A stretch of 64,000 bases of DNA from a bacterium (GTDB taxonomy: Bacteria; Patescibacteriota; Minisyncoccia; Moranbacterales; UBA1568): NCBI GenBank assembly GCA_021821305.1, contig JAKACP010000001.1, forward strand, positions 68,934 to 132,933. The letters are read 5' to 3'. The notes beneath the pieces are model-generated. The model did not search any database. It was not told the origin of the DNA and was given only the letters and a program-made list of their open reading frames with translations. Shown piece by piece: positions 3,736 through 50,543 of the stretch. The translations under genes were made by a program, and so were the position numbers. Every line of letters begins with the position of its first letter. Position 1 is the stretch's first letter.

Positions 3736-3751
3736 ATATAAGGCCTTCTTG

Positions 3752-6495: not shown

Positions 6496-8070
6496 GTGTA
6501 CCGACCGTTCGTGCTGGTCGTCTTGGACGGATGGGGCTTGAGCTCCTTCACCCAAGGGAATCCTTTGCGCCAGGCGAAGCTCCCGACCATCGAAAAACTC
6601 AACCGATTCTACCCCCTGGCGACGCTTCAGGCCTCCGGAATTTCCGTAGGTCTTCCTTGGAATACCGCCGGAAACAGCGAGGTCGGCCACATGACCATGG
6701 GCGCGGGACGCGTCATCTACCAGAACCTCCCGCGCATCGCGCTTTCCATACAGGACGGGAGTTTCTATAAGAATCCCACGCTGCTCGCCGCCATCGACAA
6801 CGTGAAACGGACCGGGGGGAAACTCCATCTGATGGGGCTCGTCGGTGCCGGCGCGGTGCACTCGAGCAAGGATCACCTCTCGGCATTGCTGCGCATGACC
6901 AAGAACGAGGGGCTCGAGCAGGTGTTCATCCACGCCTTCACCGACGGTCGCGACTCCCCTCCGATGGCGGGAATACAGCATATCCGCGACCTCGAACGCG
7001 AGATGTCGATGATCGGCATCGGCCGGGTCGCCTCGGTCATCGGTCGCAACTGGGCCATGGACCGCAACAACAACTGGGACCGCATCGAGAAGGCCTATCG
7101 GATGCTCACCGAAGGGAAAGGCGAGCCGATGACCGATGTTCCGCTCTATCTCGAGCAATCCTACCTCAAGAACGTCACGGACGAATACGTCGAGGCCGGC
7201 GTCACCGTGGATGAGAACGGGCAACCGATCGCGCGCATCGAGGAGAAGGACTCGGTGATATATTTCAATTTCCGCGAAGACCGGGCCCGTGAGCTCACCA
7301 AGGCGTTCACGCTTCCCGGCTTCGACAAGTTCGATCGGCCGAAATTTCTCGACATCCATTTCGTCACCCTGACCGAATACGAGCGGGATCTCCCCGTGAC
7401 CGGCATCGCGTTCCCTCCGGAAAAGGTCGAGAACAGTCTCGGCGAGACGCTCTCCAACGCCGGAAAAAAGCAGCTGCGCATCGCCGAGACCGAAAAATAT
7501 GCCCACGTCACCTACTTCTTCAACGGAGGCAAGGAGCGGGCTTTCGCCGGCGAAGATCGGCTCCTCGTGCCGTCTCCGACCGTTTCCAAATTCGACGAGG
7601 TTCCGGAGATGAGCTCCGGAGAGTTGACCGACACGGTCATAAAGGCCATCGGTGAGGGGAAATATGATTTCATCCTCGTCAATTACGCGAACCCGGACAT
7701 GGTCGCCCATACCGGAAACGAGGAAGCGACGGTCGAAGCCGTCGAGGCGACCGACCGGTGCCTGGCGCTCCTCATCCCCGCGGTACTGCAGGCCGGAGGC
7801 GCGATGATGGTCACTTCGGATCACGGAAACGCCGAGGAACTCAAGAAGGCTTCCACCGGAGAGACCGACACCGAGCACTCGACCAACCCCATACCGCTCT
7901 GGTACCTCACCCCGGACAACCATCGGGAAAAGGACGCCGGCACGATGATGCGCGAACAAAACGAGGTACGCGGACTCCTTTCGGACGTCGCTCCGACCAT
8001 ACTCGATATACTGCAGATTCCCCAGCCGGCCGAGATGAACGGCTCGAGTATCGCGTCCTTGCTCGAGTGA
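6496..8070 (+). CDS. gpmI: 2,3-bisphosphoglycerate-independent phosphoglycerate mutase
   Basis: The 524-aa product carries iPGM motifs (LVVLDGWG, SEVGHMTMGAGR, TSDHGNAEE). Confidence 0.9.
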   Translation: MYRPFVLVVLDGWGLSSFTQGNPLRQAKLPTIEKLNRFYPLATLQASGISVGLPWNTAGNSEVGHMTMGAGRVIYQNLPRIALSIQDGSFYKNPTLLAAIDNVKRTGGKLHLMGLVGAGAVHSSKDHLSALLRMTKNEGLEQVFIHAFTDGRDSPPMAGIQHIRDLEREMSMIGIGRVASVIGRNWAMDRNNNWDRIEKAYRMLTEGKGEPMTDVPLYLEQSYLKNVTDEYVEAGVTVDENGQPIARIEEKDSVIYFNFREDRARELTKAFTLPGFDKFDRPKFLDIHFVTLTEYERDLPVTGIAFPPEKVENSLGETLSNAGKKQLRIAETEKYAHVTYFFNGGKERAFAGEDRLLVPSPTVSKFDEVPEMSSGELTDTVIKAIGEGKYDFILVNYANPDMVAHTGNEEATVEAVEATDRCLALLIPAVLQAGGAMMVTSDHGNAEELKKASTGETDTEHSTNPIPLWYLTPDNHREKDAGTMMREQNEVRGLLSDVAPTILDILQIPQPAEMNGSSIASLLE

Positions 8071-10866: not shown

Positions 10867-12183
10867 TCACTTTCCGGATTCCTCTTCGGTCGTTTCGGTT
10901 TCCACGGCGGCTTCGGCCGGGGCCTCCTCGGCCGGAGCGACGGATTCCTCCGCCACGGCTTCCGATTCCTCCTTGACGGCACCGACACCCGCCTCGCTCG
11001 CCGACATGACGTCGATGCGGAGCCCCGAGAGCTTGGCCGCGAGCCGGACATTCTGCCCGCGCTTGCCGATGGCGAGCGAGAGCTGATCATCCGGAACGAC
11101 GACCTTGGCGCGGCGGCCCTCCTCGGTCTCCATGATTTCCACGGACACCACCTTGGCCGGGCTCATCGCTGCCGTGACGAACTTTTCGATGTCGTCATTC
11201 CACTCGATGATATCGATCTTCTCGCCGCCGAGCTCATCGATGATGGCCTGGACGCGGGTCCCCTTCTGACCGACGCACGATCCGATCGGGTCGATGCCTT
11301 CCTGGTTCGCCGATACGGCGATCTTGGTACGCGACCCCGCTTCCCGGGCGATCGCCTTGATCTCGACGGTGCCCGCGAAGATTTCCGGGACTTCGAGCGA
11401 GAAGAGATGTTTCACCATTTCGGGATGCGAACGCGAGAGTACGATGCCGGGTCCCTTCGGATCGGATTCGACACGGACGAGATAGACCTTGATATGCTGA
11501 CCCATGCGGTAGGATTCGCCTTCGACCTGCTCCGACGGGAACAGGATACCGGTCGACTTGCCGAGATCGACGAACACGTTGCGCCCTTCGATCCGCTGGA
11601 CGGTGCCGTTGACGACCTCGCCTTCGCGATCCTTGTACGCGTCGTACATCGACTGGCGTTCGGCCTCGCGGAGCCGCTGGATGACGACCTGCTTGGCGGT
11701 CTGCGCCGCCACGCGGCCGAAATCCTCGTGCGGCGGAAGTTCGATCTCGATCGTGTCGCCGACCTTGGCGCCCTTCTTGAAGGCCTTGGCTTCGTCGACG
11801 GTCAGATCGCGCTCCGGGTTGTATCGCGGGAGACGATCCTCATCGATCTCCTCCGGCTCTTCCGCCACCGGCCCCTTGCCTTCGGCTTCGGTCGCTTCCT
11901 CCTCCGTCTCCTCCACGAACTCGCGCGTCGTCTCATCGACGACTTCCTTCACGAGGAAATACTGCGCGGTCTTGGCGACCTCGTCGAACTTCACCTTGAT
12001 GACCTGGCTCTTCTTGCCATAGTCGCGCTTGTAGGCCGCCGAAAGCGCCGCCTCGACGACTTCGATCACCTTGTCCTTGGGGAGACCCTTCTCCTCGACG
12101 ATCTGCATGACCGCGCTTCCGAACTCCCCGAGCCGCCCGGACAGGCTCTCGTCGGGCTGGTCCACCACTTTCTTCTTTGCCAT
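10867..12183 (-). CDS. nusA: transcription termination/antitermination factor NusA
   Basis: The product has S1 and tandem KH domains (GSRTKIAVSANQEGIDPIGSCVGQKGTRVQ, LAIGKRGQNVRLAAKLSG) and an acidic C-terminus. Confidence 0.9.
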   Translation of the reverse strand: MAKKKVVDQPDESLSGRLGEFGSAVMQIVEEKGLPKDKVIEVVEAALSAAYKRDYGKKSQVIKVKFDEVAKTAQYFLVKEVVDETTREFVEETEEEATEAEGKGPVAEEPEEIDEDRLPRYNPERDLTVDEAKAFKKGAKVGDTIEIELPPHEDFGRVAAQTAKQVVIQRLREAERQSMYDAYKDREGEVVNGTVQRIEGRNVFVDLGKSTGILFPSEQVEGESYRMGQHIKVYLVRVESDPKGPGIVLSRSHPEMVKHLFSLEVPEIFAGTVEIKAIAREAGSRTKIAVSANQEGIDPIGSCVGQKGTRVQAIIDELGGEKIDIIEWNDDIEKFVTAAMSPAKVVSVEIMETEEGRRAKVVVPDDQLSLAIGKRGQNVRLAAKLSGLRIDVMSASEAGVGAVKEESEAVAEESVAPAEEAPAEAAVETETTEEESGK

Positions 12184-24014: not shown

Positions 24015-24101
24015 GCCGCGGTGGTGGAATTGGCAGACACGCCAGCTTTAGGCGCTGGTGGGAGCGATCCCATGAAGGTTCAAGTCCTTTCCGCGGCACC
24101 A
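24015..24101 (+). tRNA. tRNA-Leu (anticodon TAG), long variable arm, CCA encoded
   Basis: GCCGCGGTGGTGGAATTGGCAGACACGCCAGCTTTAGGCGCTGG...GGTTCAAGTCCTTTCCGCGGCACCA. Confidence 0.8.
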
Positions 24102-31799: not shown

Positions 31800-33074
31800 C
31801 TATTCGTTCTTGAGATCGACGATCCGCCCCATATCCTCGTCGCCGCTTTTCCCATGCAGGCTCACCGGACGGATCTGAAACGGATTCATCTTCTGCGCGG
31901 GACTCGGTCCGGCCGGAGCGGCGTCCTTCGACTTGTCGAAAAACGATTCCCCGGACGGGATGGTTCCTCCCGACTGCTGCTTGATCGCGAATTTCTGGGA
32001 ACCTCCCTGTTCCGATTGGAGCGTGTGGTTCGATGAGAACGAGAACTGGTCATCCTGTCCCGCGGCGGGTTTCTTTTCCGGAGTGGGCTTGGTCTCGAGG
32101 CTCGTGAAGTGCATGCCCTTGCCGATGCGGAAACCGCTCTCCTGCGGGGCCGCCTGCGGCGCGGCCGGAGCCTGTGGCGCGACGGGCACGGGCGGCACCG
32201 CCCGCTTCGGAGCCTGCGGAGGGGTGAACGGCTTGGGGGCCGGAGCCGCGACCGGCGTCGACTTGAACGCTTCGAGAAGCGACTTCGGCTTCCCTTCGGC
32301 GGAGATCTTCTTTCCCGGGGTCGGGGCCTTTGGCGCGGCCTGGCCGTCCGTCACCGAAAACGACGGGAAGACGATCTCCATCTTCCGTACATCGATATCG
32401 ACGGGGACATTGTCCTCGATCGAGCGCAGCACGAGGTTGAGGCGCTCGCGCTCCTCGGATGAGAGGGATTTGCAGTTCGGAGAATTGAAGAGGAACTTCG
32501 CCCGCAGGACGGGATCGTGATACCCGACGCCGAGCTCGTCGCGATAGGAGCGGAGCCAGTTGACGAGGCTCGGGCGCACCGGCTCGGGCTGGCTCTTGAT
32601 GCGGATCTTTTCGCGGCTCAATTGCTGTTCCGCAAGTCGCGCGTACTTGCCGAGCGCCGCGAGGAGCGGGAGCTTTTCCGAGGAGACCGGAGCGGATTCT
32701 TCCGGAGCGGAAACCGTCTCCGGATCGGGCTGTACGGTGAGGACGTTTTTTTCGATGAATTCCGCGAGCTTCGCCTTGTCGGCTCCGGTAAACGAGGCGA
32801 TCTCTTCCGCGGCGGCCGCCACGGTCTTCTTGTTGAAAAAAAGTTCGCGAATGATACCGCTCATCCGGACGATATCCGCGCCTTTCACGGAAAAATCCCC
32901 CGCGAGCGAGCGGAGTCTGAGCGGAAGCGCCGAAGACATAAGCTTCTTCCGCGTTTCCGGCGGAAGCGCCTTGTACGTGCCCCATGCGGCGCGAAGCGAT
33001 GCTTCGGCGGACTCACCCTCGAAGGCGAGCATGGGGTAGTACCGCGCGTCGATTTCCTCTTGTGATACGGTCAT
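31800..33074 (-). CDS. hypothetical protein (424 aa) with a Pro/Ala-rich central region
   Basis: It is an operon member with no recognised family. Confidence 0.45.
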   Translation of the reverse strand: MTVSQEEIDARYYPMLAFEGESAEASLRAAWGTYKALPPETRKKLMSSALPLRLRSLAGDFSVKGADIVRMSGIIRELFFNKKTVAAAAEEIASFTGADKAKLAEFIEKNVLTVQPDPETVSAPEESAPVSSEKLPLLAALGKYARLAEQQLSREKIRIKSQPEPVRPSLVNWLRSYRDELGVGYHDPVLRAKFLFNSPNCKSLSSEERERLNLVLRSIEDNVPVDIDVRKMEIVFPSFSVTDGQAAPKAPTPGKKISAEGKPKSLLEAFKSTPVAAPAPKPFTPPQAPKRAVPPVPVAPQAPAAPQAAPQESGFRIGKGMHFTSLETKPTPEKKPAAGQDDQFSFSSNHTLQSEQGGSQKFAIKQQSGGTIPSGESFFDKSKDAAPAGPSPAQKMNPFQIRPVSLHGKSGDEDMGRIVDLKNE

Positions 33075-33077
33075 ATT

Positions 33078-35177
33078 TTACGTCGTTGGGTTTTGTTTTT
33101 CGGCATCGCGCGCCTGCTTCGCCGCCGCTATGTTCGTGTCGGTCATGATCTTTCTTTCGTTCCGCGGAGCGGATTGCGATTTCAGGAGCACGTTCGCCCA
33201 CTTCCCTTCATGCTGTGCGTTCGACGGCGATTTCACGAGCTCGTCCATCACGCTCTGCGCCCATTTCGGACTCGTCGTCGCGCGGTTCTCGGCATAGGTC
33301 ATGAAGTGCTTGTCATCGAATATCTCACCTTGCTTGACGATATCAGAGGCGCCCATCTTGCCCAACACTTCGGTGTAGGCACCCTGGTACGCGTCGGCTT
33401 CGCTCGTCCCCGGGGCGCGCTTGCTGACCTGGTAATCGACGATGACTTTGGTCTTCCCTTCCTTGCGGAGCTTCCCGTCGAGGGACTTCTTGAGAACAGC
33501 GTTTTCACCGGTAGCCTTGAACGCATCCGTGTCGAATGAGGACATCGCCGTTTCGTACTGCTTGGCGTCGAGCTTGAGCGCGTCGCCGCCCGCCTTCTCT
33601 ATGAGGGTCGATATCTCCTTGGTGTTGTCGCCGAGCGCCTGGAGCGCGTTGACGAAATCGTTCGCGCCCGTGAGCGCCTTCCTGTCGGCGAGCACCATGG
33701 CGGCGCCTCCGGCGGCTATCGGATCCTTGAAGCTTCCGTCGGCTTTCCTGTTTTCGGCACCTATCTGCTTGAGGAGTTCCGAATTGCTCACGTTCCCCTT
33801 CTTGAATTCATCCGCCTGTTCATACGTACGCTTCCTCGCGAGCTCCTTCTCGGCATTGATGTATCCCTTCCGACCACCCTTGAAGAACCCGGCATATTTC
33901 GCCTCGCGCGCTTCCTCCTTCGCGGTACCGACACCCGGAACGGCGACGCCCGCGAATTTTCCTGTCTGCGCGAAATTCTTCCATCCCGCCTGCGCGCCCT
34001 TGACGGCGGCCGGCCCCTGCCCGAACGTGCCCGCGCGGAATGCGCCTCTCGCCGATTTCCGCCCGGCCCACTTGGAGAATTTCTGAGCACTGGCCCCAAC
34101 CTCTCTGGCTCCGGCAATCCCAGAGTTTTGCGCTACGATTATAGACATCCAAATCATCACGATCGGCGCTATGACAGCGACCATCGCCGCGAGATAGGTC
34201 CCGCCCCCCGTAGCTGATGAGTTATTCGCGATAGTGGTCGGGTTTCCAATGCCTCCAGGCCCTGTAAATCCTTCCAAGAACTTCAATGAGACAAGCATCA
34301 TGAGCATCGCTGCCGGCCCGAAAAAAGCATACTTCAGGAGGTTGTCCCACCACTTGGTCGCATAGGAACGGAATCCGGGTATCACCATCCCCGCGAATCC
34401 GACGGAGGAGAAGATGATGAGTACGACGAGCATGAGGGAGCGGATGAGGAACAGGATCGCGAGTACGAGCAAGGAAACACCGAACAGGAACATGAAAATG
34501 ATTCCTACGAGAAGCTTGGTGGTGATCTGACTATCGCCCTTGATATCCGAGACTTTAAAATTCTCCTTCCCAAGAATGAGTTTTTCAAGATTTGACGTTC
34601 CCAAAAACCGCTTCGTGACATTCTCCGCCTTCGCATCCGCCGGATTACTGAATATGCTCTCCATGAAAAAATACATGGGAACGTTGGCGACATCGATGAC
34701 GAATCGGGCTATAGGGAAACTGAAGTTGACGAGAAGCGCCATGAGAAGCAATTTCCCGAGCGACTTCTTGTAGTTGAAAGAGTCGATCTGGAATATCGTC
34801 GCGAAAGCGATGAAGAGGAGAGTGAGTATGAAAAAAAGGTTGAAGAAGTCCCGCACCATCTGCCAGAGCAAATAGATGGCCGGCATCGTGAACATCGTGT
34901 TGAACGCAACCGGATCCACGGTAAGCCCCAAAAGCATCGCCGACCATGTCACTGGGTAGGAAACAAGTGTAAAAACAGCGTAAAGAATTATATTGATGAC
35001 GTAGAAAAAAGCATCACCAGCGGTATCAGTAACGAAACTGAAAAGCCCGGCGTTAGCTTGGTGTATATCGAAAAAGAATACGAAAAAGAATATCGATAGA
35101 AAAAAAGCCGAAGAAAATTTATTTATTTTCGTTTTTCTTGAAATCATAGCGCGAAGCTTTCGGTCGAAATATACCAT
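33078..35177 (-). CDS. large polytopic membrane protein, VirB6/PrgH/ConG-like T4SS channel component candidate
   Basis: The 699-aa product has many TM helices and a Gly/Ala-rich C-terminal region. Its stop overlaps the next gene. Confidence 0.5.
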   Translation of the reverse strand: MVYFDRKLRAMISRKTKINKFSSAFFLSIFFFVFFFDIHQANAGLFSFVTDTAGDAFFYVINIILYAVFTLVSYPVTWSAMLLGLTVDPVAFNTMFTMPAIYLLWQMVRDFFNLFFILTLLFIAFATIFQIDSFNYKKSLGKLLLMALLVNFSFPIARFVIDVANVPMYFFMESIFSNPADAKAENVTKRFLGTSNLEKLILGKENFKVSDIKGDSQITTKLLVGIIFMFLFGVSLLVLAILFLIRSLMLVVLIIFSSVGFAGMVIPGFRSYATKWWDNLLKYAFFGPAAMLMMLVSLKFLEGFTGPGGIGNPTTIANNSSATGGGTYLAAMVAVIAPIVMIWMSIIVAQNSGIAGAREVGASAQKFSKWAGRKSARGAFRAGTFGQGPAAVKGAQAGWKNFAQTGKFAGVAVPGVGTAKEEAREAKYAGFFKGGRKGYINAEKELARKRTYEQADEFKKGNVSNSELLKQIGAENRKADGSFKDPIAAGGAAMVLADRKALTGANDFVNALQALGDNTKEISTLIEKAGGDALKLDAKQYETAMSSFDTDAFKATGENAVLKKSLDGKLRKEGKTKVIVDYQVSKRAPGTSEADAYQGAYTEVLGKMGASDIVKQGEIFDDKHFMTYAENRATTSPKWAQSVMDELVKSPSNAQHEGKWANVLLKSQSAPRNERKIMTDTNIAAAKQARDAEKQNPTT

Positions 35178-35243
35178 AAATTAAGAAAAATAAAAAACCC
35201 CTTAAAAAATAAGAGGTTTAAGATATGGCCGAAAAATTAACGG

Positions 35244-35681
35244 CTATATATAGTTCACTTCATTTCCGGTTGAGGGATCCCAGTAAGCCACCCTCCCGTT
35301 CGAAGATTGAATGTCTATATCCATCAAATCGGTCGAATCAAGATGTGCGACGACTTCTCTTGCCACCGGTTTGATTTCGATGAATAAGAGAACCTCCCCA
35401 TCATCACCGGAAACACGAAGGGTGTCAGCAGTGATCTCTTGCTTGAGAAAAGCCTGACGAATCGACTCACGCTGTTGTTCCGCTGCGTTACGAGTGGCAA
35501 AGTGCATATAAACGAATCGGGCACCCGGCTTCAAGACAAGCTTGACTTTCCCAGAATCGAATATTGACGATTCAACTTCCCCGCTTTGAGAAGCGGTTTT
35601 CTCGTCACCCAGACATCCGGAAAGGGAAACGGCCAGGAACAATGCGGCAAAGGCCGCAAATACCGATTTGAATGCTTTCAT
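35244..35681 (-). CDS. hypothetical lipoprotein
   Basis: The internal start MKAFKSVFAAFAALFLAVSLSGC gives a signal peptide plus lipobox. Confidence 0.5.
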   Translation of the reverse strand: MKAFKSVFAAFAALFLAVSLSGCLGDEKTASQSGEVESSIFDSGKVKLVLKPGARFVYMHFATRNAAEQQRESIRQAFLKQEITADTLRVSGDDGEVLLFIEIKPVAREVVAHLDSTDLMDIDIQSSNGRVAYWDPSTGNEVNYI

Positions 35682-36016
35682 GACGGTCTCCTTTCGAGAG
35701 ATTTGAGATCCGAACGGATCAGGGGAACTACGGTTTTTAAAGAAACAAAGGCTTATATCCACTGAACTCCTCTTTTGTGGAGTATCTCTTTATAGCAAAT
35801 TTTACGGATTTTGTCAATACTCCGACAAGTCGGAAAAGCACCATACTCCCTTATACAAGCCTCCCTGCCGTTTTCTTCCTATCCCAAGAAATGGTCCTTT
35901 CCCACCCCGGGCATGCATCCTCGTATCGAGGATGCCAGAACTCGTCGATCGGATGATTGGAGACAAGCTCAATGGTCTGATATTTGAGACAAGAGAGAGA
36001 AAATCAAAGAGCCCCT

Positions 36017-36517
36017 TTAGAGATAGAAGATCTTTACAAGCTTTGGCAAATCACCCTTTGTTTTCTCACCTTTTTCTATACTTTCAAAAAGCTCTTGTGG
36101 AGTCATCCAAAAATACTCCGTATAATCGTCTGGATTGTAGTTTGGAGCTTGATCTGTTCGAATTTCATAAACATTCATGAACGCCGCTACTCCATCTTTT
36201 TCAGGTGTAAGGTGTCCCAGAAGTTTCCATGGGGTTTTATCTGCATCAATATTGAGTTCTTCACTCAACTCTCTTTTAAAGGATACTTCGTAACTTTCCC
36301 CACTCTCAACATGCCCGCCCATACTCATATCTAAGCATGAGGGAAAAATCCGCTTATGAGCACCCCGGCGAGGCAGCCAAAGCTTGCCCTCAGAGTTGAC
36401 GAGAAAGGCATTCACCACACGAAAATTCGACAAGCCCTCGGCATAGACTTCCGAGCGAAGCTTCCTGCCGATCACCTCGTCTTTTTCGTTTACTAAATCG
36501 AGATATTCATCATTCAT
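36017..36517 (-). CDS. NUDIX hydrolase
   Basis: The Nudix box is GGHVESGESYEVSFKRELSEELNI. Confidence 0.8.
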   Translation of the reverse strand: MNDEYLDLVNEKDEVIGRKLRSEVYAEGLSNFRVVNAFLVNSEGKLWLPRRGAHKRIFPSCLDMSMGGHVESGESYEVSFKRELSEELNIDADKTPWKLLGHLTPEKDGVAAFMNVYEIRTDQAPNYNPDDYTEYFWMTPQELFESIEKGEKTKGDLPKLVKIFYL

Positions 36518-36599
36518 ACGCCTAAGGCAAAGTATAAAAGAAAAAAAAGAAGCTGTCCATCATGCGATGAACAGCCTTATAGCTAGTAGCGACCTAGTA

Positions 36600-37124
36600 C
36601 TAGCTGCTCCTGAACTTCTCAGGAACGTCGTCCCAAGTAGCGAAGAGAGCGAGAACCTCATACTCAACTGGCCCCTTTGGACCATCGGATGATCCTGTGT
36701 CGCCAATGTGTAGACCCATGAGTGCTTGAGCCATCGGCGCGTTATAGGCGACGCGTTGCTGTGGGACATCCGTTTCGCCGTAGCCAACGATTTCCCAGAC
36801 AAACTCGTCTTCTTCGCCACTCACCTTGTAGTAACGATTCAGAAGCACGATAGATCCGAGCTGCACTCTTGTCGTATTACGCTTGTCGAAAGCAAACACC
36901 TGAGCACTTGCAATGAGGGCATTGAGACTAGCCACTTCTTGGGCCTTCCTCTTTTCATCCTGTTCCAACCTGTTGAAGTAGGGATTGTCATGCCATGTAT
37001 CGCCAGTAGCCGTATACGCCGTAGCTTTTTCCATCCGGAGTGCTTCCAGCTCTTCGTTCAACATATTCAGCCTCCCATTGAGAAGATCCAGCCCCGTCTT
37101 GCTTACATAAATGACGTTTGCCAT
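36600..37124 (-). CDS. GreA/GreB-family transcription elongation factor-like protein
   Basis: It has an N-terminal coiled-coil region and a C-terminal FKBP-like domain (PMAQALMGLHIGD...GPVEYEVLAL). Confidence 0.55.
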   Translation of the reverse strand: MANVIYVSKTGLDLLNGRLNMLNEELEALRMEKATAYTATGDTWHDNPYFNRLEQDEKRKAQEVASLNALIASAQVFAFDKRNTTRVQLGSIVLLNRYYKVSGEEDEFVWEIVGYGETDVPQQRVAYNAPMAQALMGLHIGDTGSSDGPKGPVEYEVLALFATWDDVPEKFRSS

Positions 37125-37134
37125 TGCATACTCC

Positions 37135-37872
37135 TTAAATACCCATTTGGTAACGAAGATTCTCGATTTTTTCCACGATTTTCTGACGAGTCATTGCCGG
37201 AGACGGGAGCGTAGCTTGTTCAGACCCCAAGCTCCTTTCCGAAAGCAAGTCATTAGTCACCCAGCCGACATTTTCGTGGGTAATCACCAAAGTGGCAACA
37301 AACTGATCATTGGGCGTATCCACACGGTGCAACACCTCCCCCTCGATTGAATAGATGCTGCCTTCGGTAACACGCTCAGTCCCTATGCTGACGAGCTTGG
37401 TCTTGCCTCGGCTTTCTACATCGTAGTGCTCCTTGCTGCCACGAGCGTAATACCGGTAGTGGAAGTACTCTTCTCCCTCTTCGTCTGGAGTAGCAAACCG
37501 GTAGCTGTGATTGTCGGCGTATCCTACCAAAACTGCCGATGAGAAATCCCAACGATGATTATGGACATTCTGTCGAGGCCTCTTGGCATTCGGGATGGCA
37601 AGTGGATGCCACAAATGCAAGCGCATCTTCATTTTCGTCTCAGAATCCTGGAAGAGGACGATCTTGTCGAATCCATTGTCATGGGCATACGAATCCGTGT
37701 GATGGTGAGCCGAGTGCAGCGTGCCGTAGATGAACTCGTCAAGCATCGCTGCCAGAACGCTTGGCTGGACAAGCCGCTGCAGCTCTTCCGTAACCGATAC
37801 TGCTTTCGCTTTGCGCTCAAGAAGAGCTAGGCGTAGGAATCTCTCCTCCCACTCGGGGTTATAGAGTGTCAT
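37135..37872 (-). CDS. hypothetical protein (245 aa), His-rich, possible cupin-like fold
   Basis: It has the HLWHP...NVHNHRWDF motifs. No confident family is recognised. Confidence 0.45.
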   Translation of the reverse strand: MTLYNPEWEERFLRLALLERKAKAVSVTEELQRLVQPSVLAAMLDEFIYGTLHSAHHHTDSYAHDNGFDKIVLFQDSETKMKMRLHLWHPLAIPNAKRPRQNVHNHRWDFSSAVLVGYADNHSYRFATPDEEGEEYFHYRYYARGSKEHYDVESRGKTKLVSIGTERVTEGSIYSIEGEVLHRVDTPNDQFVATLVITHENVGWVTNDLLSERSLGSEQATLPSPAMTRQKIVEKIENLRYQMGI

Positions 37873-38420
37873 GATTTATCTCCTCTTAGATTGAGACTAG
37901 CCAAGATGAGGTCTGTGGTTTCCTCGACCGTGGCATCACTCGTGTCTATCACACTGTGGCCGAAAGTCTTGAAAATCCTGTCGGCCTGTCGTTGCAATGG
38001 CAGGTTCAGCTCGAGATCGTTTACATTCTTTCGTGAACGAAGTCGCTTCTTTCTCACCTCTTCCCTTGCTGTCAATATGAATGTGTAATCAGGCATGACA
38101 AGCTGGGTTATCTCGAAGAGTGACTGGATTTGAGTATCCATGGCTCCATGAAATGCAAAGGTTGAATAGATGTAGCGGTCGCACACGACACCAGAGGTTT
38201 TGAGTATTTCTCCGATCTTCTTCGAGTCGTGCTGTGTTGCCGCGCGATAGAAGAAGTAACGCGCCAGTGGCTCGACATCAGTATCGACAATGGAACGGGC
38301 TGATGAGAATAGACCGCCGGGACTCTTGTAGTACTGGTAGCCTAGCCTTTCTGCCAAACGCTTTCCGACCTCTGTTTTTCCCACTGCATCTACCCCTTCT
38401 ATACAGATGAAGATAGTCAT
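37869..38420 (-). CDS. thymidylate (dTMP) kinase-like P-loop kinase
   Basis: The P-loop is ICIEGVDAVGKTE and the DRY motif is VCDRYIYSTFAFHG. Confidence 0.6.
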   Translation of the reverse strand: MTIFICIEGVDAVGKTEVGKRLAERLGYQYYKSPGGLFSSARSIVDTDVEPLARYFFYRAATQHDSKKIGEILKTSGVVCDRYIYSTFAFHGAMDTQIQSLFEITQLVMPDYTFILTAREEVRKKRLRSRKNVNDLELNLPLQRQADRIFKTFGHSVIDTSDATVEETTDLILASLNLRGDKS

Positions 38421-38810
38421 GCTCTACTCCTTGTAGGGTTGCGAGTTGTTAAGTTACTAAACAAATTACAATATCATAATCCCTATTACTTGCCAATACC
38501 CCGTAATGTTTCAATTACCTTTGCATCACCGTGATACGCTGACCTGTTTAATGCGAAGCTATGGCCTATACAACGAATTCGAAGGCGCCGAAGGTGCGAT
38601 GGGAAGCGGTGAAGATAGTTTCAGTTGGAGGTGTGGCACAAAATAGAAGGGTAAAGTAAATATCCTTTCACCAGCAATGGTGAAACGCGTTTCGAGCCTT
38701 TGTGTGAAAGAAAAGGTTTTCTGATTTGACCGTTTCTTTGACCCAAACACGAAAGTTACTAGCTCCTTCAAGAGCTTAATGCAAACTTTATATGTCATTA
38801 CAAAATACGC

Positions 38811-38850
38811 CAGACACATAAAAACCCAGTCGCCAATGAAGGCAACTGGG
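38811..38850 (-). terminator. rho-independent terminator downstream of the GNAT gene
   Basis: On the minus strand: CCCAGTTGCCTTCATTGGCGACTGGG followed by TTTTTATG. Confidence 0.4.
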
Positions 38851-38870
38851 TAACTGAGGGAGCGATACAG

Positions 38871-39395
38871 TCATGTTCGATAAATCCGATAGGCAACTAT
38901 GGTGTGATCTTCCCCTCTGGCGTTCTGGGAGATGAATTCTTCTTCCTCCGAGATTCCGCCAAGCTTTTCCGGAATACGACGACTGGGAACATTGTCCTTA
39001 TGAACCGGATAGTATAGGTACTCATACTCGATATGCTCGTCGGCCCATCGCTTAAGAGCCGCGACGATCTCGAATCCGAAACCGTTGTTCCATGCTGATT
39101 CCTTGAGCCATAGCCCCGGCTCGGGTCGCGTCCAGAGGTGATGCAACCCCGTGCATCCGATGAATTCCTCGGAGTTTTTTGACACCGCGACAAATTGAAG
39201 TTCTCCCCCTCGCCCCATACTGTCCAGCGAACCGGAAATGAACGCATCGGTATCAGCTATGTTTCCGGTCGGCTGTGGCCAAGTATACCGCGCCACCCGA
39301 TCTGTGAATGCCTGAAAAATTTCTTGCCGGTATTTCGCAGAAATCGGCACCAGAAGGAGCCGCTCTGTCTCGATTGTCACACTCCGTAAATCCAT
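38871..39395 (-). CDS. GNAT-family N-acetyltransferase (RimJ/RimL-like)
   Basis: The start is at the internal MDLRSV. The acetyl-CoA-binding region is ELQFVAVSKNSEEFIGCTGL...FGFEIVAAL. Confidence 0.65.
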   Translation of the reverse strand: MDLRSVTIETERLLLVPISAKYRQEIFQAFTDRVARYTWPQPTGNIADTDAFISGSLDSMGRGGELQFVAVSKNSEEFIGCTGLHHLWTRPEPGLWLKESAWNNGFGFEIVAALKRWADEHIEYEYLYYPVHKDNVPSRRIPEKLGGISEEEEFISQNARGEDHTIVAYRIYRT

Positions 39396-39517
39396 GATTT
39401 CGTCCCTTATAACATTTTGAATGAGCTTGTCACCGGGCATAATTCCTAATGACAGACCATCTTATACCATAAATTCCATCATGTAAATAAGATCGGTCAG
39501 TTCAGTTGTCAAAGGAA

Positions 39518-39542
39518 AATGAAAAGGCGGCGTTTCCGCCGC
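39518..39542 (-). terminator. hairpin terminator; one of two identical 25-nt copies flanking the metallophosphoesterase gene
   Basis: On the minus strand: gcggcggaaacgccgcc followed by ttttcatt. Confidence 0.45.
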
Positions 39543-39676
39543 GTCTCCCAACTTCACTTGAGCCCTGTTATCCGAAGCAAGAAAGGACCTGCTCTTTTTT
39601 CTGCTTCTTTTCAAATGATGACGCTCGCGAAAAAGGCAGGCCCGGCTTTCAAAAAAGCGAAGGTTCAACAGTTCTC

Positions 39677-40441
39677 TCAGTGGCTTTCCAAATGACGTAA
39701 TACAACGCTCCCGTCGGAAAAAAAGTCAAAAAGAGACATCTTCCCCTCGTTCACCTTGTAAGCGATATTGCACGCGGAAACCGTACCGCGTGCTTTTTTT
39801 ATCCCCCGCGGACCATGATGAGCATGCCCGCTCAGGGCCAAGTGTGGATTTACTTGTTCGATAGCATCGCCCAGTCTCGAGCTGCCAAGAATGACATAGA
39901 GTTCTTTCGGTTCTCCTTCTATCGTTTCTTCGAAGGCCGCCCAGTGTGTAAGGGTGATCTTAAAATCAGGAGCCGCATTCTCCATTTGGTATAAGGCTGT
40001 TTTCAGTTTTTCCACTTCGCGATCTTCTTCTTCCACGAAAGACTTTGTCGCGCGCTCTCCACGGCTCACGATTCTGTGCGGGGCGAAGCCACCGCCATAC
40101 CCTTTCGCTCCGCCAATACCGACTTTCTTCCCATTCAGTTCATATTCGGCATACTCGCCATCAAGCACCTTGATAGACGGGTTCCCCAAAAGCATCTCTT
40201 TTATCCCATCCACATCATCGGCATCATAATCATGATTACCAAAGACCACGATTATCGGAACTTGTACACCGGAGACAAGATCAAGAAAGTGTTCCACTTC
40301 TTTCTTTTTCCCGTCATTCATATCGCCACCGATGATAAGCAGATCCGCAGTATCGTTTACATGATCAAAAAAGTCCTTTTGGATAGGATATTTGTTGACA
40401 TGAATGTCGCTTACAGCCGCAATGGAAAATACCGGTTTCAT
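39677..40441 (-). CDS. calcineurin-like metallophosphoesterase
   Basis: MPE motifs are present (VSDIHV, GGDMND, GNHDY, SGHAHH). Confidence 0.75.
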   Translation of the reverse strand: MKPVFSIAAVSDIHVNKYPIQKDFFDHVNDTADLLIIGGDMNDGKKKEVEHFLDLVSGVQVPIIVVFGNHDYDADDVDGIKEMLLGNPSIKVLDGEYAEYELNGKKVGIGGAKGYGGGFAPHRIVSRGERATKSFVEEEDREVEKLKTALYQMENAAPDFKITLTHWAAFEETIEGEPKELYVILGSSRLGDAIEQVNPHLALSGHAHHGPRGIKKARGTVSACNIAYKVNEGKMSLFDFFSDGSVVLRHLESH

Positions 40442-40479
40442 GCTTTAAGACTACCACAATGTTCGGATATGATACTAGA

Positions 40480-40504
40480 TAATGAAAAGGCGGCGTTTCC
40501 GCCG
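40480..40504 (-). terminator. hairpin terminator; identical 25-nt copy of 39518-39542
   Basis: The sequence aatgaaaaggcggcgtttccgccgc is identical at both sites. Confidence 0.45.
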
Positions 40505-40590
40505 CTCTTTAGCACAGTCCGCCGTCATCAATTTTTCATTTCGGTTTCCGCTTCCGGTTAGAAATTAGGAATTAGAACTTAGACATTGGC

Positions 40591-41694
40591 CTAGTACACG
40601 TATCCCTTGATCGAGCGGCTCGAGACCGCGATCACGCGCTTGTTCACTTTGCCCCATCCCTTGTAGTTCATTTCCGAGACGGTGATAGTGCCGCCGGAGA
40701 CCTTTTCCACGAGCGCGACGTGGCCGTAGTAGGCGTTGTCGGTCGTGACGACGATCGCGCCGACCGCCGGGGTCTTACCGGTCTTGTAGCCCATGGCGCG
40801 GGCGTTGTAGAGCCAGGTGCCGGCATTGCCGCCCCATGGGACATAGCGCTTCTGCGCGATATACCAGGTACAGTAGCCGTATGGGAACCGGTGCCCGGTT
40901 CCCGCCTTGCCCTCGAGTTTCTTGCCGACGCCGGATACGTCCGTGATATTCCCCGATCCCGAGGAGGTGGCGTACTGGCGGAGACCGATACCGGTCGTCG
41001 GCTCCGGCTTGGGCATTTCCTTGTATCCGCCCGGGATGACGATCGATTCGCCGGACACGAGCTCGCCGTTCGCCGGAAGCCCGTTGAACGATATGATCGT
41101 GGCCCGGTCGGCCTTGTATTTGGAAGCGATGGCGTCGATGGTCTCGCCGCTCGCCACCTTGTGCGAGAGTCCGGCGACCGGCAGGATGAATATCTGATCT
41201 CCGGGTTTGATGGAGTCGACATTGTCGAGGTCGTTCGCCCAGAGGATGGTGTTGACGGTGATCTTGTGCTTGGCCGCGATGCCGGACACCGTGTCGCCGT
41301 CCTTGACCGTATAGACGCTCACGCCGCCTTCCTCTTCCGGATCCTTGGTGATCGAAGCGCCGGCTTCCGCGGAAAGAAGAGCTCCTTCCTGGAACGCTAC
41401 GAGCTCGGCTTGGTCGTCGGCCGCCTTGTCAGCGGGGTCGATGGTGGCGACAGCGGTCGCGAGCGGAGCGAGGGAAAGGTTGGTCGTCGCCGTCTGCTCG
41501 GACGCGAAAGACTTCCGAGGGAGCTCGGACGTGGCGGAAACGGTGTCACGGAAAGACCCGAACACCGGGCTCTCGGAGCCCTGTTCCTGGGTGACATTCG
41601 TGACTGATACGAGAAGGGCGCTCGAGACTACCAGGGAAAAAGCGCCATAATTGCGGAATGGTTCGACGAGACGTCCGCCGAAACCGCCCTTCAC
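40591..41694 (-). CDS. secreted peptidoglycan hydrolase with two LysM domains and a C-terminal CHAP domain
   Basis: The LysM repeats are YTVKDGDTVSGIAAKHKITVNTILWAN and HKVASGETIDAIASKYKADRATIISFN. The CHAP Cys motif is YGYCTWY, with His in YYGHVALV. Confidence 0.8.
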   Translation of the reverse strand: MKGGFGGRLVEPFRNYGAFSLVVSSALLVSVTNVTQEQGSESPVFGSFRDTVSATSELPRKSFASEQTATTNLSLAPLATAVATIDPADKAADDQAELVAFQEGALLSAEAGASITKDPEEEGGVSVYTVKDGDTVSGIAAKHKITVNTILWANDLDNVDSIKPGDQIFILPVAGLSHKVASGETIDAIASKYKADRATIISFNGLPANGELVSGESIVIPGGYKEMPKPEPTTGIGLRQYATSSGSGNITDVSGVGKKLEGKAGTGHRFPYGYCTWYIAQKRYVPWGGNAGTWLYNARAMGYKTGKTPAVGAIVVTTDNAYYGHVALVEKVSGGTITVSEMNYKGWGKVNKRVIAVSSRSIKGYVY

Positions 41695-42072
41695 TGCCTC
41701 AATAGCCTCGCGCTGGAAGCGGTGGACCGCCGTATCGATGAGAGCGAATCTCTCCGCGGCGATTTCCCGGACCCGGGCGATGGCTGTTTTGATGCGAGAA
41801 AGAATAATAGGGAAGATCCCTTTCCTGAGACGGGGGCTGTAGGCAAGGCGCTCCTTTAATGAAAAAGAAGCCGCTCAAACCATCGGCCTCCGACCTAATT
41901 TTTACGCTTGGAAAGTATAGCCCTTCTCCGGGCTCCTGTCAACAGTTTTCGCCTCATTTTCTCATTTTTTTGGCTCTATGAAAGCAAAAATTAATAAGAT
42001 ACCGACAGGCGATCCGCAGGCGAAAAAGGTACCGGGAAGGGGAAAATCCGGTTTGCCTGGTATAATGCCGTC

Positions 42073-43014
42073 ATGACCTCCATGACCCCCCTCCGATCCC
42101 TCATGAAACGGTTCTCGAGCCACCTCGAGATCGAGCTTGGCCGTGCGCCGAGGACGATATCGAACTATGAGCGGTCGCTCGGGAAGTTTTTCGACTGGAG
42201 CGGAGCGAAAACCCCCGAAGACATCACCTTCGACCGGATCCGGGAGTTCCGCATCTTCCTCAACCGGTCGGAAAACGGCCGCGGCGAGCCGCTCCGGAAA
42301 ACGACGCAGATCTATCATATCGTCGTCCTGCGCTCGTTCCTCAAGTTCCTGGCCAAGGAGGATATCGTCACCGTCCCCGCGGAAAAGATCGAGATCGGCA
42401 GGGTCCCGGACCGCCAGGTCGACTTCCTCGAGCTCGACGAGGTGATGCGCCTCATCGAGGCGGCCGACGGCGACAGCCTCCGCGCGCGGCGGGACCGCGC
42501 CATACTCGAGCTCCTCTTCTCGGCCGGCCTCCGCGTCTCCGAACTGACGAGTCTCGACCGCTCGTCGGTCAACCTCAACAAGGGCGAGTTCAGCGTCCGC
42601 GGCAAGGGCTCCAAGCTCCGGGTCGTCTTCCTCTCCGACGACGCGCGCCGTGCGCTCGAACGCTACCTCGACAAACGCACCGACATGGACCCGGCCATCT
42701 TCATCTCCCTCCCGAAGAAGGGGCTGGGCAAGGAACGCAAGAACGGAAGCCTCCGGCTCACGGAGCGGAGCGTCCAGCGCATCGTGAAACGCGCGGCGGT
42801 GAAGGCGGGCATCGTCAAGGACGTGCACCCGCACACGCTCCGGCACAGTTTCGCGACGGACCTCCTCCAGGGCGGCGCCGACATCCGCGCGGTACAGGCG
42901 ATGCTCGGCCACTCATCCATCACCACCACCCAGATCTACACCCACGTCACCAACGAACGCCTCCGCGAGATCCACGAGAAATTCCACGGGAAAAAGAAAA
43001 GGACGGGCACATGA
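42073..43014 (+). CDS. tyrosine site-specific recombinase, XerC/XerD family
   Basis: The catalytic RHRY motifs are present (LRVSEL, HTLRHSFATDLLQGGADIRAVQAMLGHSSITTTQIYTHV). Confidence 0.8.
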   Translation: MTSMTPLRSLMKRFSSHLEIELGRAPRTISNYERSLGKFFDWSGAKTPEDITFDRIREFRIFLNRSENGRGEPLRKTTQIYHIVVLRSFLKFLAKEDIVTVPAEKIEIGRVPDRQVDFLELDEVMRLIEAADGDSLRARRDRAILELLFSAGLRVSELTSLDRSSVNLNKGEFSVRGKGSKLRVVFLSDDARRALERYLDKRTDMDPAIFISLPKKGLGKERKNGSLRLTERSVQRIVKRAAVKAGIVKDVHPHTLRHSFATDLLQGGADIRAVQAMLGHSSITTTQIYTHVTNERLREIHEKFHGKKKRTGT

Positions 43015-43033: not shown

Positions 43034-43903
43034 CTATATATCCGCCGCGTCGAAAAGCTGTCTCGAGTGGAACTGCATCACGCGAAGGGAATAGGCGAAA
43101 CGCTGGTATACCCGTTCACGACTTATCCCCATCGAGGTCGCGATATCGGCGAGATCCAACTCCTGATTCCGGCCGTTGAGACCGAACTTGCGCTCGACGA
43201 TTTCCAGATCGCGCGGGTTCTTGAGACATCCGAGCAATTTTTCCGCGGCCTGCACGGAATCCAACCTGTCCGATATGGAATCGGCATGATTTTCTTCCTG
43301 GTCATGGAGGACATCGTGGAGAGTCCGTTCATCCCCTTCTATCGCCGCATCGATCGAGAGCATCCGCGACGCCACCTTCCGTGCCAAGACGATTTTCGAT
43401 ACCGGAGTGCCGAGAATATCGGAAAGTTCCTCGTCCGTCGGCTCACGTCCGTTTTCCATGAAAAATTTCCGTTCCTCGCGGAAGATTTTCCTTGCCATAT
43501 CACCGATATGTTCGGGAACATGGACGACACGGTCCTTGCTCAGCGCCCGAAAGACGGCCTGTCGTATCCACCAGGTGGCATAGGTCGAGAATTTGAACCC
43601 GCGATCGGGGTCGAATTTCTCGACGGCCACGAAAAGACCGAGATTCCCCTCCTGTATGAGATCGGCCATCGGCATTCCCGTCCGACAATAATTCCTCGCG
43701 ATGGATATGACCAGGAAGAGGTTATGCTCGATGAGTTCCGTTCTTGCCTGCTCGTCGCCGGCTTGAATGCGCCGCCCGTACTCCCGTTCCTCTTCGAACG
43801 TGAGTATCCGGTGGCGTGCCTCGCTTATGTATGTCGAAACGATATTCCGTTCCTCGCGATTCTCATTGGTCAATTCGTCCAACAAATCGTCATCGGGTTC
43901 CAA
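43034..43903 (-). CDS. RNA polymerase sigma factor, sigma-70 family (short primary-like)
   Basis: Region 2 is [34 protein letters not shown] and region 4 is ISRERVYQ. Confidence 0.8.
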
Positions 43904-49889: not shown

Positions 49890-50159
49890 ATGCCGATCAA
49901 GGAAAACGCGAAGAAGTATATGCGGGTGACCGCGAGGAAGACCGCCCAGAACAAGATCGTGAAGGGCGTGCTCAAGAGCGCCGTCAAGAAGACCCGTGAA
50001 GCGGTCGCCGGCGGCAAGATCGACGAGGCCCAGGAGATGCTCAAGAAGGCGCAGAAGGCCTTCGACAAGGCGGCTCAGAAGAACATCATCAAGAAGAACA
50101 CCGCCGCCCGCAAGAAGTCCCGCCTCAACACGCTCGTGAAGAACGCGTCAAAAGCCTAG
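49890..50159 (+). CDS. rpsT: 30S ribosomal protein S20
   Basis: The 89-aa basic Lys/Ala-rich product is typical of S20. Confidence 0.9.
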   Translation: MPIKENAKKYMRVTARKTAQNKIVKGVLKSAVKKTREAVAGGKIDEAQEMLKKAQKAFDKAAQKNIIKKNTAARKKSRLNTLVKNASKA

Positions 50160-50202: not shown

Positions 50203-50232
50203 AATAAACTCCCTGCCAGAGGGAGTTTTCTT
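50203..50232 (+). terminator. rho-independent terminator after rpsT
   Basis: aaactccctgccagagggagttt followed by tcttt. Confidence 0.5.
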
Positions 50233-50543
50233 TACGCTGCGTCTAACAAATCTTCCCATTCCGGATTAACGGTCTCAACAAGCGAATCCTTCCATTTTCG
50301 CCTCCATCTCTTAAGTTGCCCTTCCCGGCGAAGAGCCTCCTTCATGTCTGATGCTTTCTCAAAGTAAACCAACTTGTTCACTTTATATTTTCGTGTAAAA
50401 TCAGCTCCGTTTCCACTCCTGTGCTGTTTGAGTCTTCTTGCCAAATCCTTCGTACTTCCAACGTACATCACTTGATGATTCCAGTTCGTCAAAATATAGA
50501 CGTAATAATCGGAATCAGACATAAGGTAAAGATCCCGAATCAA
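50232..50543 (-). CDS. GIY-YIG nuclease family protein (YhbQ-like, 103 aa)
   Basis: YYVYILTNWNHQVMYVGSTKDLARRLKQHRSG. Confidence 0.7.
   Translation of the reverse strand: MIRDLYLMSDSDYYVYILTNWNHQVMYVGSTKDLARRLKQHRSGNGADFTRKYKVNKLVYFEKASDMKEALRREGQLKRWRRKWKDSLVETVNPEWEDLLDAA

Follow-up and report, generated by a model that had tools for sequence, protein, structure and literature searches.

Genes and features of the locus

The stretch analysed here, termed the window, comprises 64,000 nucleotides of a metagenome-derived Candidatus Moranbacteria genome (assembly GCA_021821305.1, contig JAKACP010000001.1, positions 68,934 to 132,933 of the forward strand). Positions refer to the window, unless a compared locus (designated by L and a number) is named. 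The window carries a type IV secretion system (T4SS) cluster, which the initial annotation had recognized: VirB4 (P-loop_TraG, 1.5e-29), a TraC-like protein, a PrgI/TcpE-like VirB3 (PrgI, 7.5e-12) and a VirB6-like polytopic membrane protein, encoded by the first large gene of the operon (33078-35177, minus strand; 393 homologues, several with PF19590/PF04610). It is adjoined by a gene for a LysM-LysM-CHAP peptidoglycan hydrolase (40591-41694, minus strand; Pfam LysM twice and CHAP), which is a native flank, and by a small lipoprotein gene (35244-35681, minus strand; signal peptide and Cys read from the translation). Between the hydrolase and lipoprotein genes lies a strain-specific foreign insert of about 4.56 kb (35921-40477, minus strand). 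Its six genes are co-oriented with the flanking genes and encode a metallophosphoesterase, a GNAT acetyltransferase, a dTMP-kinase-like P-loop kinase, a His-rich cupin, a GreA/Gfh1-like factor and a NUDIX hydrolase. The insert is absent in L003, L011 and L007.

Loci with close VirB6 homologues and 80 species-representative loci from GTDB genomes were compared, flanking and island proteins being placed by tblastn. The VirB6-like homologues are almost all from metagenome-assembled genomes (MAGs) of Candidatus Moranbacteria/Moraniibacteriota, and the position of their gene is identical in all loci compared. The order UvrD - Xer (opposite strand) - LysM/CHAP - VirB6 - 424-aa gene - PrgI - VirB4 is kept in essentially all loci. 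The median distance between the hydrolase and VirB6 genes is 280 bp (72 loci with both genes, 62 of which are from species-representative genomes). It is 5,413 bp in the window, which exceeds every one of these 72 loci. In the window's own clade (L003, L011 and L007-L010; VirB6 identity to the window 87%, 85% and 76%, respectively), the gap is 760-850 bp and contains only the terminator, the promoter and the lipoprotein gene (about 147 codons). In more distant Moranbacteria, the hydrolase gene directly abuts the VirB6 gene. Homologues of any of the six island proteins were found within 10 kb of the site in none of the 80 species loci (tblastn). The conserved order and the absence of the six genes indicate that the hydrolase is a fixed partner of the T4SS operon and that the six genes are a lineage-specific insertion. 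The island was therefore rightly described as separating the hydrolase from the operon, and its low-GC genes are not a shared feature of related lineages.

Patescibacteria carry their T4SS loci on the chromosome; these loci are akin to the mating-pair formation (MPF) type MPF-FATA of monoderms, and an association of VirB1-like hydrolases with virB4 is specific to Paceibacteria (PMC12102498). The locus resembles monoderm MPF-FATA systems with a dedicated hydrolase (PrgK, CwlT, TcpG, CD419) and their Patescibacteria homologues (PMC12102498) in that VirB4 (TraG P-loop), PrgI/VirB3, TraC-like, VirB6-like and LysM-CHAP proteins are encoded in one chromosomal cluster. It differs from them in the 5.4 kb of foreign DNA that part the hydrolase gene from the operon. 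From its sequence and from the position of its gene, directly upstream of the VirB6-like gene in 72 Moranbacteria loci, the LysM-CHAP protein is predicted to be a conserved VirB1-like partner of the Moranbacteria T4SS, in agreement with the description for Paceibacteria (PMC12102498). The reading of the whole T4SS region as an integrative and conjugative element (ICE) was rejected, since in about 60 species the region is syntenic with uvrD and further core genes.

The composition of the insert differs from that of the rest of the window. Its guanine-cytosine (GC) content is 0.476 (35,906-40,478) versus 0.591 +/- 0.011, with a minimum of 0.560, in 101 equal-length segments elsewhere (z = -10.7). 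The tetranucleotide distance between the insert and the remaining window corresponds to z = 18; the GC-normalised tetranucleotide correlation with the remainder is 0.70 for the insert and 0.95 +/- 0.017 for the other segments. The GC drop sits at synonymous sites: the GC content of codon position 3 (GC3) is 0.42-0.59 in the six island genes and 0.78-0.89 in the genes of VirB4, PrgI, the 424-aa protein, the hydrolase (0.81), UvrD and Xer. The fall in GC content announced by the initial annotation thus holds on quantification by sliding GC and tetranucleotide analysis, far beyond the window's own variation. The limits proposed for it (35,800-40,560) are near those of the insert as delimited by comparison (about 35,921-40,477), but the trough starts near 34,900-35,200 and not at 35,800. 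In a 1-kb profile, GC content is 54-64% over the window and 44-52% at 34-41 kb; in a 300-bp profile, the trough covers about 34,250-40,590, with values of 36-54%. The additional part corresponds to the lipoprotein gene and the first 100 or so codons of the VirB6-like gene (GC 0.46-0.48). Since it is equally low in all close relatives, this part is older and lies outside the new insert.

Both limits of the insert coincide with regulatory features. In the nucleotide alignment with L003, the homologous part takes in the hydrolase gene with its terminator (GCGGCGGAAACGCCGC-TTTT), ends at about 40,478 and returns at about 35,920-35,905, upstream of the lipoprotein/VirB6 promoter. The terminator hairpin of the hydrolase gene (R1, a repeat copy; 40478-40505, minus strand; GCGGCGGAAACGCCGCC TTTTCATTaTC; terminator scan) is kept after the hydrolase gene in L003, L004, L007-11, L018 and L076. 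The native promoter of the lipoprotein/VirB6 operon (TTGACA-17 nt-TATAAA, 35789-35817, minus strand) is intact downstream of the insert and nearly invariant in L003, L004 and L011. The insert lies exactly between the intact terminator and the intact promoter, so that foreign DNA is tolerated without breaking either transcription unit. Its left edge carries a perfect 9-bp hairpin with a 3-nt loop and no T-run (GCATCCTCG-ATA-CGAGGATGC, 35915-35935, minus strand), which was read from the sequence, as was the promoter, and has no counterpart in relatives. No tRNA gene was found near the region, the nearest being at 24015-24101, and an Rfam scan of 34.5-42.2 kb gave no match.

The source being a metagenome assembly, a low-GC fragment of another organism could have been joined into the contig, and an independent contig (L001, ENA ERZ534008, from another sample) breaks within the insert, at position 39880. 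Such an artefact is hardly credible. At 99.6% identity, L001 independently spans the GNAT gene, the kinase-cupin-Gre triad, the NUDIX gene, the lipoprotein gene, VirB6 and VirB4. A native terminator that is duplicated ends exactly at the right junction, and the insert is co-oriented and bounded by the intact native terminator and promoter.

The flanks are themselves a recombination mosaic. The promoter and the lipoprotein gene are nearest to L004, the middle of VirB6 to L003 and the 424-aa gene to L004 again; sliding identity over 31800-35890 versus L003, L004, L011 and L007 gives alternating blocks closest to L003 or L004. Homologous recombination among related Moranbacteria is thus frequent inside the T4SS operon itself. 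The lipoprotein gene is limited to the window's clade (L003, L004, L007, L011, L018, L045, L076 and L090), with 46-48% GC throughout. Its product is hypervariable (41-66% aa identity versus 76-92% for the flanking genes). The gene probably represents an earlier gain at this slot, and the protein is possibly a surface-exposed T4SS accessory protein. Relatives also carry small 23S_rRNA_IVP/bAvd-like four-helix-bundle genes between the 424-aa gene and prgI, and elsewhere (L004 12849-13247; L005; L007 13381-13770, also 3496-3870 and 6291-6656; L008; L010); the 424-aa gene and prgI are 3 bp apart in the window.

Cargo genes and their sources

The identities proposed for the six genes by the initial annotation were retrieved, five by Pfam; the His-rich protein was found as such and has no Pfam match. 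The genes form several modules, which share the orientation of the locus and are each provided with promoter-like and terminator-like signals of their own. The metallophosphoesterase module (39611-40475, minus strand; gene 39677-40441; Pfam Metallophos, 7e-12) is bracketed by R1 and a second repeat copy, R2. The GNAT module (38871-39485, minus strand; gene 38871-39440; Pfam Acetyltransf_3, 5e-21) follows. It is separated from the kinase gene by a spacer (38509-38870) that includes a terminator-like hairpin of the GNAT gene (38824-38851) and a doubtful 86-aa open reading frame (ORF; 38559-38819), with neither a family match nor an Rfam match.

The next three genes form a triad. The first (37869-38420, minus strand; Pfam Thymidylate_kin, 4e-17) encodes the kinase, and its stop codon overlaps the next start by 4 bp. 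The kinase has a P-loop (GVDAVGKT), a DRY motif and a basic lid. It matches thymidylate kinases of the PDB at 1e-7, and its TIGR00041 score (66.6 bits) is below the cut-off of the dTMP-kinase equivalog (83.25). It is predicted to work like a Tmk-fold kinase. The second gene (37135-37872, minus strand) encodes a 245-aa His-rich cupin with an HxHRWD...H motif. This family is rare (56 clusters in 5.8 billion proteins, nearly all of 244-247 aa), with invariant residues H104, H106, R107, W108, D109 and H182. The AlphaFold2 model of the cupin (predicted local distance difference test score 89) has mercaptosuccinate, cysteine and 3-mercaptopropionate dioxygenases as top PDB folds (E about 2e-6), with template modelling scores of only 0.4-0.5 and 12-19% identity; in this model the protein resembles a thiol dioxygenase with three His. 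The third gene (36600-37124, minus strand; Pfam GreA_GreB C-terminal domain, 7e-13) encodes a GreA/Gfh1-like secondary-channel factor of RNA polymerase. Its match in Pfam is limited to the C-terminal domain, its TIGR01462 score is 56.5 versus a cut-off of 139, and the protein aligns over its full length equally to Gfh1 (3e-6) and GreA (3.5e-6) in the PDB. The NUDIX gene (36017-36517, minus strand; Pfam NUDIX, 3e-13) has a promoter-like site at 36559-36531. Its product is 88% identical (aa) to that of L012, where the gene is next to the triad, and 93% identical (79% for nucleotides) to that of L171 (41.5% GC), where there is no triad.

The kinase-cupin-Gre order is found in every close relative with a long enough contig (17 metagenome loci and L012-L017). 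The stop codon of the kinase gene often overlaps the start of the cupin gene, and a NUDIX or CYTH gene is commonly located downstream. The neighbourhood is mixed, with housekeeping genes (a clamp-loader-type gene of DNA polymerase III in L014; glyA and folD in L017) as well as TIR, methylase or restriction genes (L017, L104 and L114). In a low-GC contig (L107, 2045-6691), the triad is followed by two CYTH-like genes, a Tmk fragment, a nucleoside-diphosphate-kinase fusion and a NUDIX fusion, as assigned by reading the sequence; this neighbourhood appears strongly nucleotide-centred. Conceivably, the triad with its NUDIX or CYTH gene would form a new, nucleotide-linked regulator that acts on the secondary channel of RNA polymerase. 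Most likely, the cargo does not serve the secretion system; its predicted function is in nucleotide housekeeping or signalling, with a coupling to transcription.

The initial annotation had seen a phage-derived or defence flavour in this cargo. The first part is not supported. A prophage or phage-satellite remnant would account for the PHROG matches, which are weak to moderate and generic (phosphoesterase phrog_1649, 5e-18; kinase phrog_761, 8e-16; cupin phrog_4784, 1e-13). It is highly improbable, as structural, replication, lysis and integrase genes are absent in the insert, a scan of 2.9 million IMG/VR contigs with the cupin alignment gave zero relatives, and the close homologues are all on chromosomal CPR (candidate phyla radiation) contigs.

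The second part stands only through candidate PADLOC models and through the toxin-antitoxin (TA) and Abi cassettes found at the site in relatives. The insert would then be defence or anti-defence cargo in what would amount to a small defence island, and the kinase, NUDIX and phosphoesterase would form, or act within, a system against phages. The PADLOC matches are those of the kinase (PDC-M51B, 1.4e-26; VakA, 3e-18), the NUDIX (PDC-S07, 2e-8) and the phosphoesterase (PDC-S10, 5e-11). AbiE and MNT/HepT TA modules occupy the same slot in relatives, and TIR, methylase or restriction genes accompany the triad in the three loci mentioned above. However, the PDC models are unvalidated candidates that are easily matched by generic fold families. 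The matches are to single proteins (PDC candidates and the VakA model), no complete validated system being matched, and the cupin and the Gre-like protein have no PADLOC match. No useful literature was found on PDC-M51 or VakA. Moreover, the triad follows the clamp-loader-type gene in L014 and is beside glyA and folD in L017; tmk classically adjoins holB. A defence role is thus unlikely.

By comparison of the modules with their nearest homologues, the insert is no single island; at least three sources contributed to this mosaic. The phosphoesterase module (40,475-39,611) is 79.5% identical in nucleotides and 80% in amino acids to L098; the GNAT module (39,485-38,871) is 76.6% and 82% identical, respectively, to the same locus (10892-11510). 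L098 is contig 8 of a 49%-GC Moranbacteria MAG (CAYOIM01), in which the phosphoesterase gene is near valS and the phosphoesterase and GNAT genes are 2.2 kb apart, with two other genes between them. In the T4SS locus of the same MAG (L081, contig 9), none of the six genes was found in the 12 kb examined, a stretch that excludes the hydrolase-VirB6 slot. The segment 36,022-38,508 (kinase, cupin, Gre-like and NUDIX genes) is related to L012/L013 (81% in nucleotides, 84-91% in amino acids; contig GC 0.456). The spacers 38,509-38,870 and 35,921-36,016 have no similarity to any locus compared, and no paralogue of the island genes was found elsewhere in the 64-kb window.

As traced, the nearest homologues of the six genes are located on Patescibacteria contigs of 39-55% GC, at other genomic positions, which bears out the proposal of a lower-GC donor. 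The GC3 of the kinase, cupin and Gre-like genes is 0.53, 0.59 and 0.57 in the window and 0.50, 0.59 and 0.60 in L012; this closeness to the cargo relatives indicates little or no amelioration. Alternatively, the block could be ancestral and deleted from the relatives that lack it: the locus is a recombination mosaic, which blurs relationships, and one relative (L004) shares a 77-bp element with the insert. Nonetheless, not one of the 80 species-level loci carries an island gene within 10 kb of the site, the foreign composition matches that of the low-GC cargo relatives, and the homologues occupy other genomic positions in other genomes. Ancestry of the block can therefore be given almost no credence.

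Insertion hotspot and duplicated terminators

Across the group, insertions recur in the slot that separates the hydrolase gene from VirB6, which makes it a hotspot. Of the 72 loci measured, 21 have a gap of more than 1 kb; the contents of the 17 that were inspected (16 lineages) are unrelated to the cargo of the window. These contents include AbiEii-type TA pairs (L018, L090, L043, L079, L047, L038 and L078), MNT/HepT pairs (L047 and L079), a MerR-ATPase with a DUF4325 partner (L076, L043, L042 and L041), an IS30-like transposase (L042), PaaX-like regulators (L004 and L088) and a HExxH protein (L004 and L090; motif read from the sequence, no Pfam match). In L056 (5729-9536), a pfkB-family kinase (Pfam), an AhcY-like protein (sequence reading) and the S-adenosylmethionine synthetase MetK (Pfam) are encoded, so the hotspot takes up metabolic genes too, among them methionine-cycle genes.

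In the window, R1 and R2 (39515-39542) form a 28-nt direct repeat (27/28 identical, 963 bp apart) that brackets the phosphoesterase cassette; the 17-nt hairpin core of R1 occurs only twice in the 64 kb. R2 is overlapped by a 77-bp element that ends in it (39522-39598; whole feature 39515-39598, minus strand; sequence comparison). In L004/L006, an unrelated gene of 179 aa occupies the same site and is followed by a segment to which this element is 84% identical. In L004, the second terminator copy is degenerate, the same 77-bp element precedes it, and the enclosed gene is unrelated. Terminator repeats bracket cassettes in five other lineages: AbiE in L018 (20 nt), L038 (27 nt, 100% identical) and L078 (18 nt or more), ATPase/DUF4325 in L041 (30 nt) and MNT/HepT in L047 (64 nt, 63/64 identical, a repeat that takes in the final 27 nt of the hydrolase ORF). 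The local terminator sequence differs in each of the five lineages, and each repeat occurs exactly twice in its 14-22 kb locus. Empty sites have one terminator copy. No second copy was found at the occupied sites of L090, L043, L042, L076, L056 and L079. The search for direct repeats or attachment (att) sites at the boundaries, suggested by the initial annotation, thus gave no island-wide repeat but the 28-nt repeat around the phosphoesterase cassette alone. At the ends of the GNAT, triad and NUDIX units there are other hairpins, unrelated to it. The sharp edges, the variable length and the inclusion of the 3' end of the target gene in one repeat point to an att-type integration (either site-specific or of the short-homology Campbell type) and not to transposition. 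Other repeats at the slot are of another kind. Three identical 28-nt perfect palindromes (TACTTTTCTTGCAATTGCAAGAAAAGTA) surround the PaaX-like gene of L088 (8656-8683, 9444-9471 and 9739-9766), and three copies of another repeat surround that of L004; both are probably operators. The L088 repeats were rejected as a terminator duplication, being a palindromic operator present three times, and are left out of the count.

A gene for a Xer-type tyrosine recombinase (42073-43014, plus strand; Phage_integrase, 5e-45), divergent from the hydrolase gene, is located 378 bp beyond it, close to the 400 bp first reported. It is matched by the XerD, XerC and XerA models at 232-248 bits (XerD 248; XerA-type 232, cut-off 220) and scores 126 bits with the integron integrase model TIGR02249 (cut-off 265). 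It is found at the same position in about 60 species, with or without cargo; being conserved regardless of cargo, it is by itself no evidence of island mobility. The possibility that it is the integrase of the island or of an integron was rejected, as it is present without cargo and fails the integron-integrase model. No conserved dif-like site was found between the Xer and hydrolase genes. This interval contains instead a 12-nt motif, GTAAAAATTAGG (41894-41905, minus strand), which is not an obvious Xer site. It starts 9 nt past the -10 box of the hydrolase promoter (TTGACA-17-TATACT, 41914-41942), and 40 of the 61 Moranbacteria loci have it at the same place with at most two mismatches; it is no palindrome, and Rfam gave no match. 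It lies where the hydrolase transcript begins and is possibly a leader or an operator of this gene.

These observations could be combined in a more specific mechanism, in which the 3' end and terminator of the hydrolase gene would be an att site for recombinase-less cassettes across Candidatus Moranbacteria. The recombinase would be provided in trans, most plausibly by the adjacent Xer gene, and the cassettes would integrate and excise as circles, Xer recognizing the hairpin rather than the sequence. This would refine the entry mechanism of a horizontal acquisition and not replace it. Sharp-edged terminator repeats bracket the first cassette in the window, L018, L038, L041, L078 and L047, each exactly twice in its 14-64 kb sequence; the cargo varies by lineage (phosphoesterase, AbiE, MNT/HepT, ATPase/DUF4325) and empty sites have one copy. 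The same 77-bp 3' element ending in the repeat is found at two unrelated genes in two lineages, none of the cassettes encodes a recombinase, and Xer is adjacent in all genomes. However, the repeats are wholly different between lineages, like ordinary intrinsic terminators, although the Xer proteins are 54-91% identical to that of the window, a contrast that speaks against a conserved binding site for Xer. Nor is the recombinase an integron integrase. Past the 6-bp terminator hairpin, no significant or attC-like fold was found in the 77-bp element (z = -0.7), and the 106-nt 3' region folds no better than shuffled sequences (z = -0.72). Only one module of the window is bracketed, and RecA-mediated Campbell integration of circles excised from related genomes would leave the same footprint. 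Given the lineage-unrelated repeats and the six occupied sites without a second copy, Xer-mediated capture is a minority hypothesis and, both as a dock and as a circle-based mechanism, rather doubtful.

Two other features of the window are set apart from the hydrolase-VirB6 slot. A gene for a sigma-70 factor (group-1/2-like, 43034-43903, minus strand; 289 aa; GC 0.54, GC3 0.66) is located between uvrD and xer. L003 and L007 lack it here, the latter having a small 23S_rRNA_IVP gene instead, and L004 has it at only 72% aa identity. No direct repeats were found around it (43.0-43.9 kb); its position looks like a second variable slot. A stand-alone gene for a 103-aa GIY-YIG nuclease (50232-50543, minus strand; 42% GC in 60%-GC surroundings) is next to rpsT (49890-50159). 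It is another small insertion of foreign composition.

Origin of the insert and significance

The best explanation of the locus is a lineage-specific mosaic of accessory genes, horizontally acquired from lower-GC Patescibacteria, in a permissive T4SS intergenic slot of a Candidatus Moranbacteria genome; its probability is put at about 85%. The horizontal acquisition of a low-GC island, which was the central proposal of the initial annotation, is supported by the foreign composition, the absence in relatives and the low-GC homologues. As the slot lies between the intrinsic terminator of the hydrolase gene and the lipoprotein/VirB6 promoter, both of which are intact, cargo can be tolerated there. 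Two routes were probably combined in its entry. The first would be an att-type integration (site-specific or short-homology Campbell-type) at the hydrolase terminator. The second would be a homologous exchange of the whole slot between related Moranbacteria, which is proposed because the flanks are a recombination mosaic.

Several points weigh against this explanation. The right junction (hydrolase to phosphoesterase) is seen only in the window's own assembly, L001 starting inside the phosphoesterase gene (position 39880); the exact phosphoesterase protein occurs on three contigs. Even the nearest cargo relatives reach only 77-93% protein identity and 76-81% DNA identity, and the direct donor was not found among the cargo homologues traced. 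No integrase or transposase domain was found in the six proteins, there is no tRNA gene at the insert, and no direct repeat joins 35.9 kb and 40.5 kb, only the phosphoesterase cassette being bracketed. In the absence of a mobility gene, a tRNA gene and an island-wide repeat, the mechanism of entry is only inferred.

The object itself is of an ordinary kind, a foreign accessory islet at an insertion hotspot. Genomic islets are known at hotspots between core genes, such as the 'minimal mobile elements' of Neisseria and flexible genomic islets. They share with the locus unrelated, compositionally foreign cargo without mobility genes in one slot, and flanks with homologous-recombination mosaicism. 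In contrast, the six lineages described here have a first cassette bracketed by a duplicated terminator, which a pure flank-mediated homologous replacement does not predict. Cis-mobilizable elements (CIMEs) at the 3' end of fda in Streptococcus thermophilus result from a site-specific integration in this 3' end, which leaves cis-mobilizable remnants. In both cases, the 3' end or terminator of the target gene is duplicated as direct repeats around integrase-less DNA (L047: 64 nt, including 27 nt of the ORF). The differences are that no cognate ICE or integrase was identified here, and that the units are only about 0.7-1 kb, each being a complete small operon.

Integrative mobile elements exploiting Xer (IMEX) are Xer-dependent elements. 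So are the dif modules of Acinetobacter plasmids (PMC6449649). Like the cassettes described here, both are small recombinase-less modules, often TA pairs or single accessory genes, with short repeated bounds, and a host Xer is available to them, in the present case next door. They differ in their sites, which are conserved 28-bp 11-6-11 XerC/XerD sites and not lineage-specific GC-rich terminator hairpins in direct orientation. Integron arrays have in common with the locus a tyrosine recombinase gene divergent from small, co-oriented, unrelated cassettes, TA cassettes being common. Furthermore, two unrelated cassettes share a 3' element, and the bracketed, apparently newest cassette is the nearest to the recombinase side. 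Unlike in integrons, the recombinase fails the integrase model, the hydrolase gene intervenes, there is no attC-like fold and the cassettes have their own promoters.

CPR bacteria (Patescibacteria) have tiny genomes, in which gene gain is little understood, and the locus provides a concrete and comparable example of it. A slot inside a conserved chromosomal T4SS cluster repeatedly takes foreign cassettes that carry TA modules, regulators or metabolic genes, here nucleotide-related enzymes; other Patescibacteria, differing in GC content, are the source of this cargo. Two items are also raised by the analysis: a rare, strictly conserved kinase-cupin-Gre operon, and the LysM-CHAP hydrolase as a fixed component of the Moranbacteria T4SS locus. 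In the terminator duplications, a mechanism of integration that does without a recombinase encoded by the cassettes would have a footprint open to testing. If true, the cassette dock would be an integron-, dif-module- or IMEX-like gene capture in CPR bacteria, beside a machinery thought to mediate the exchange of DNA or proteins with hosts.

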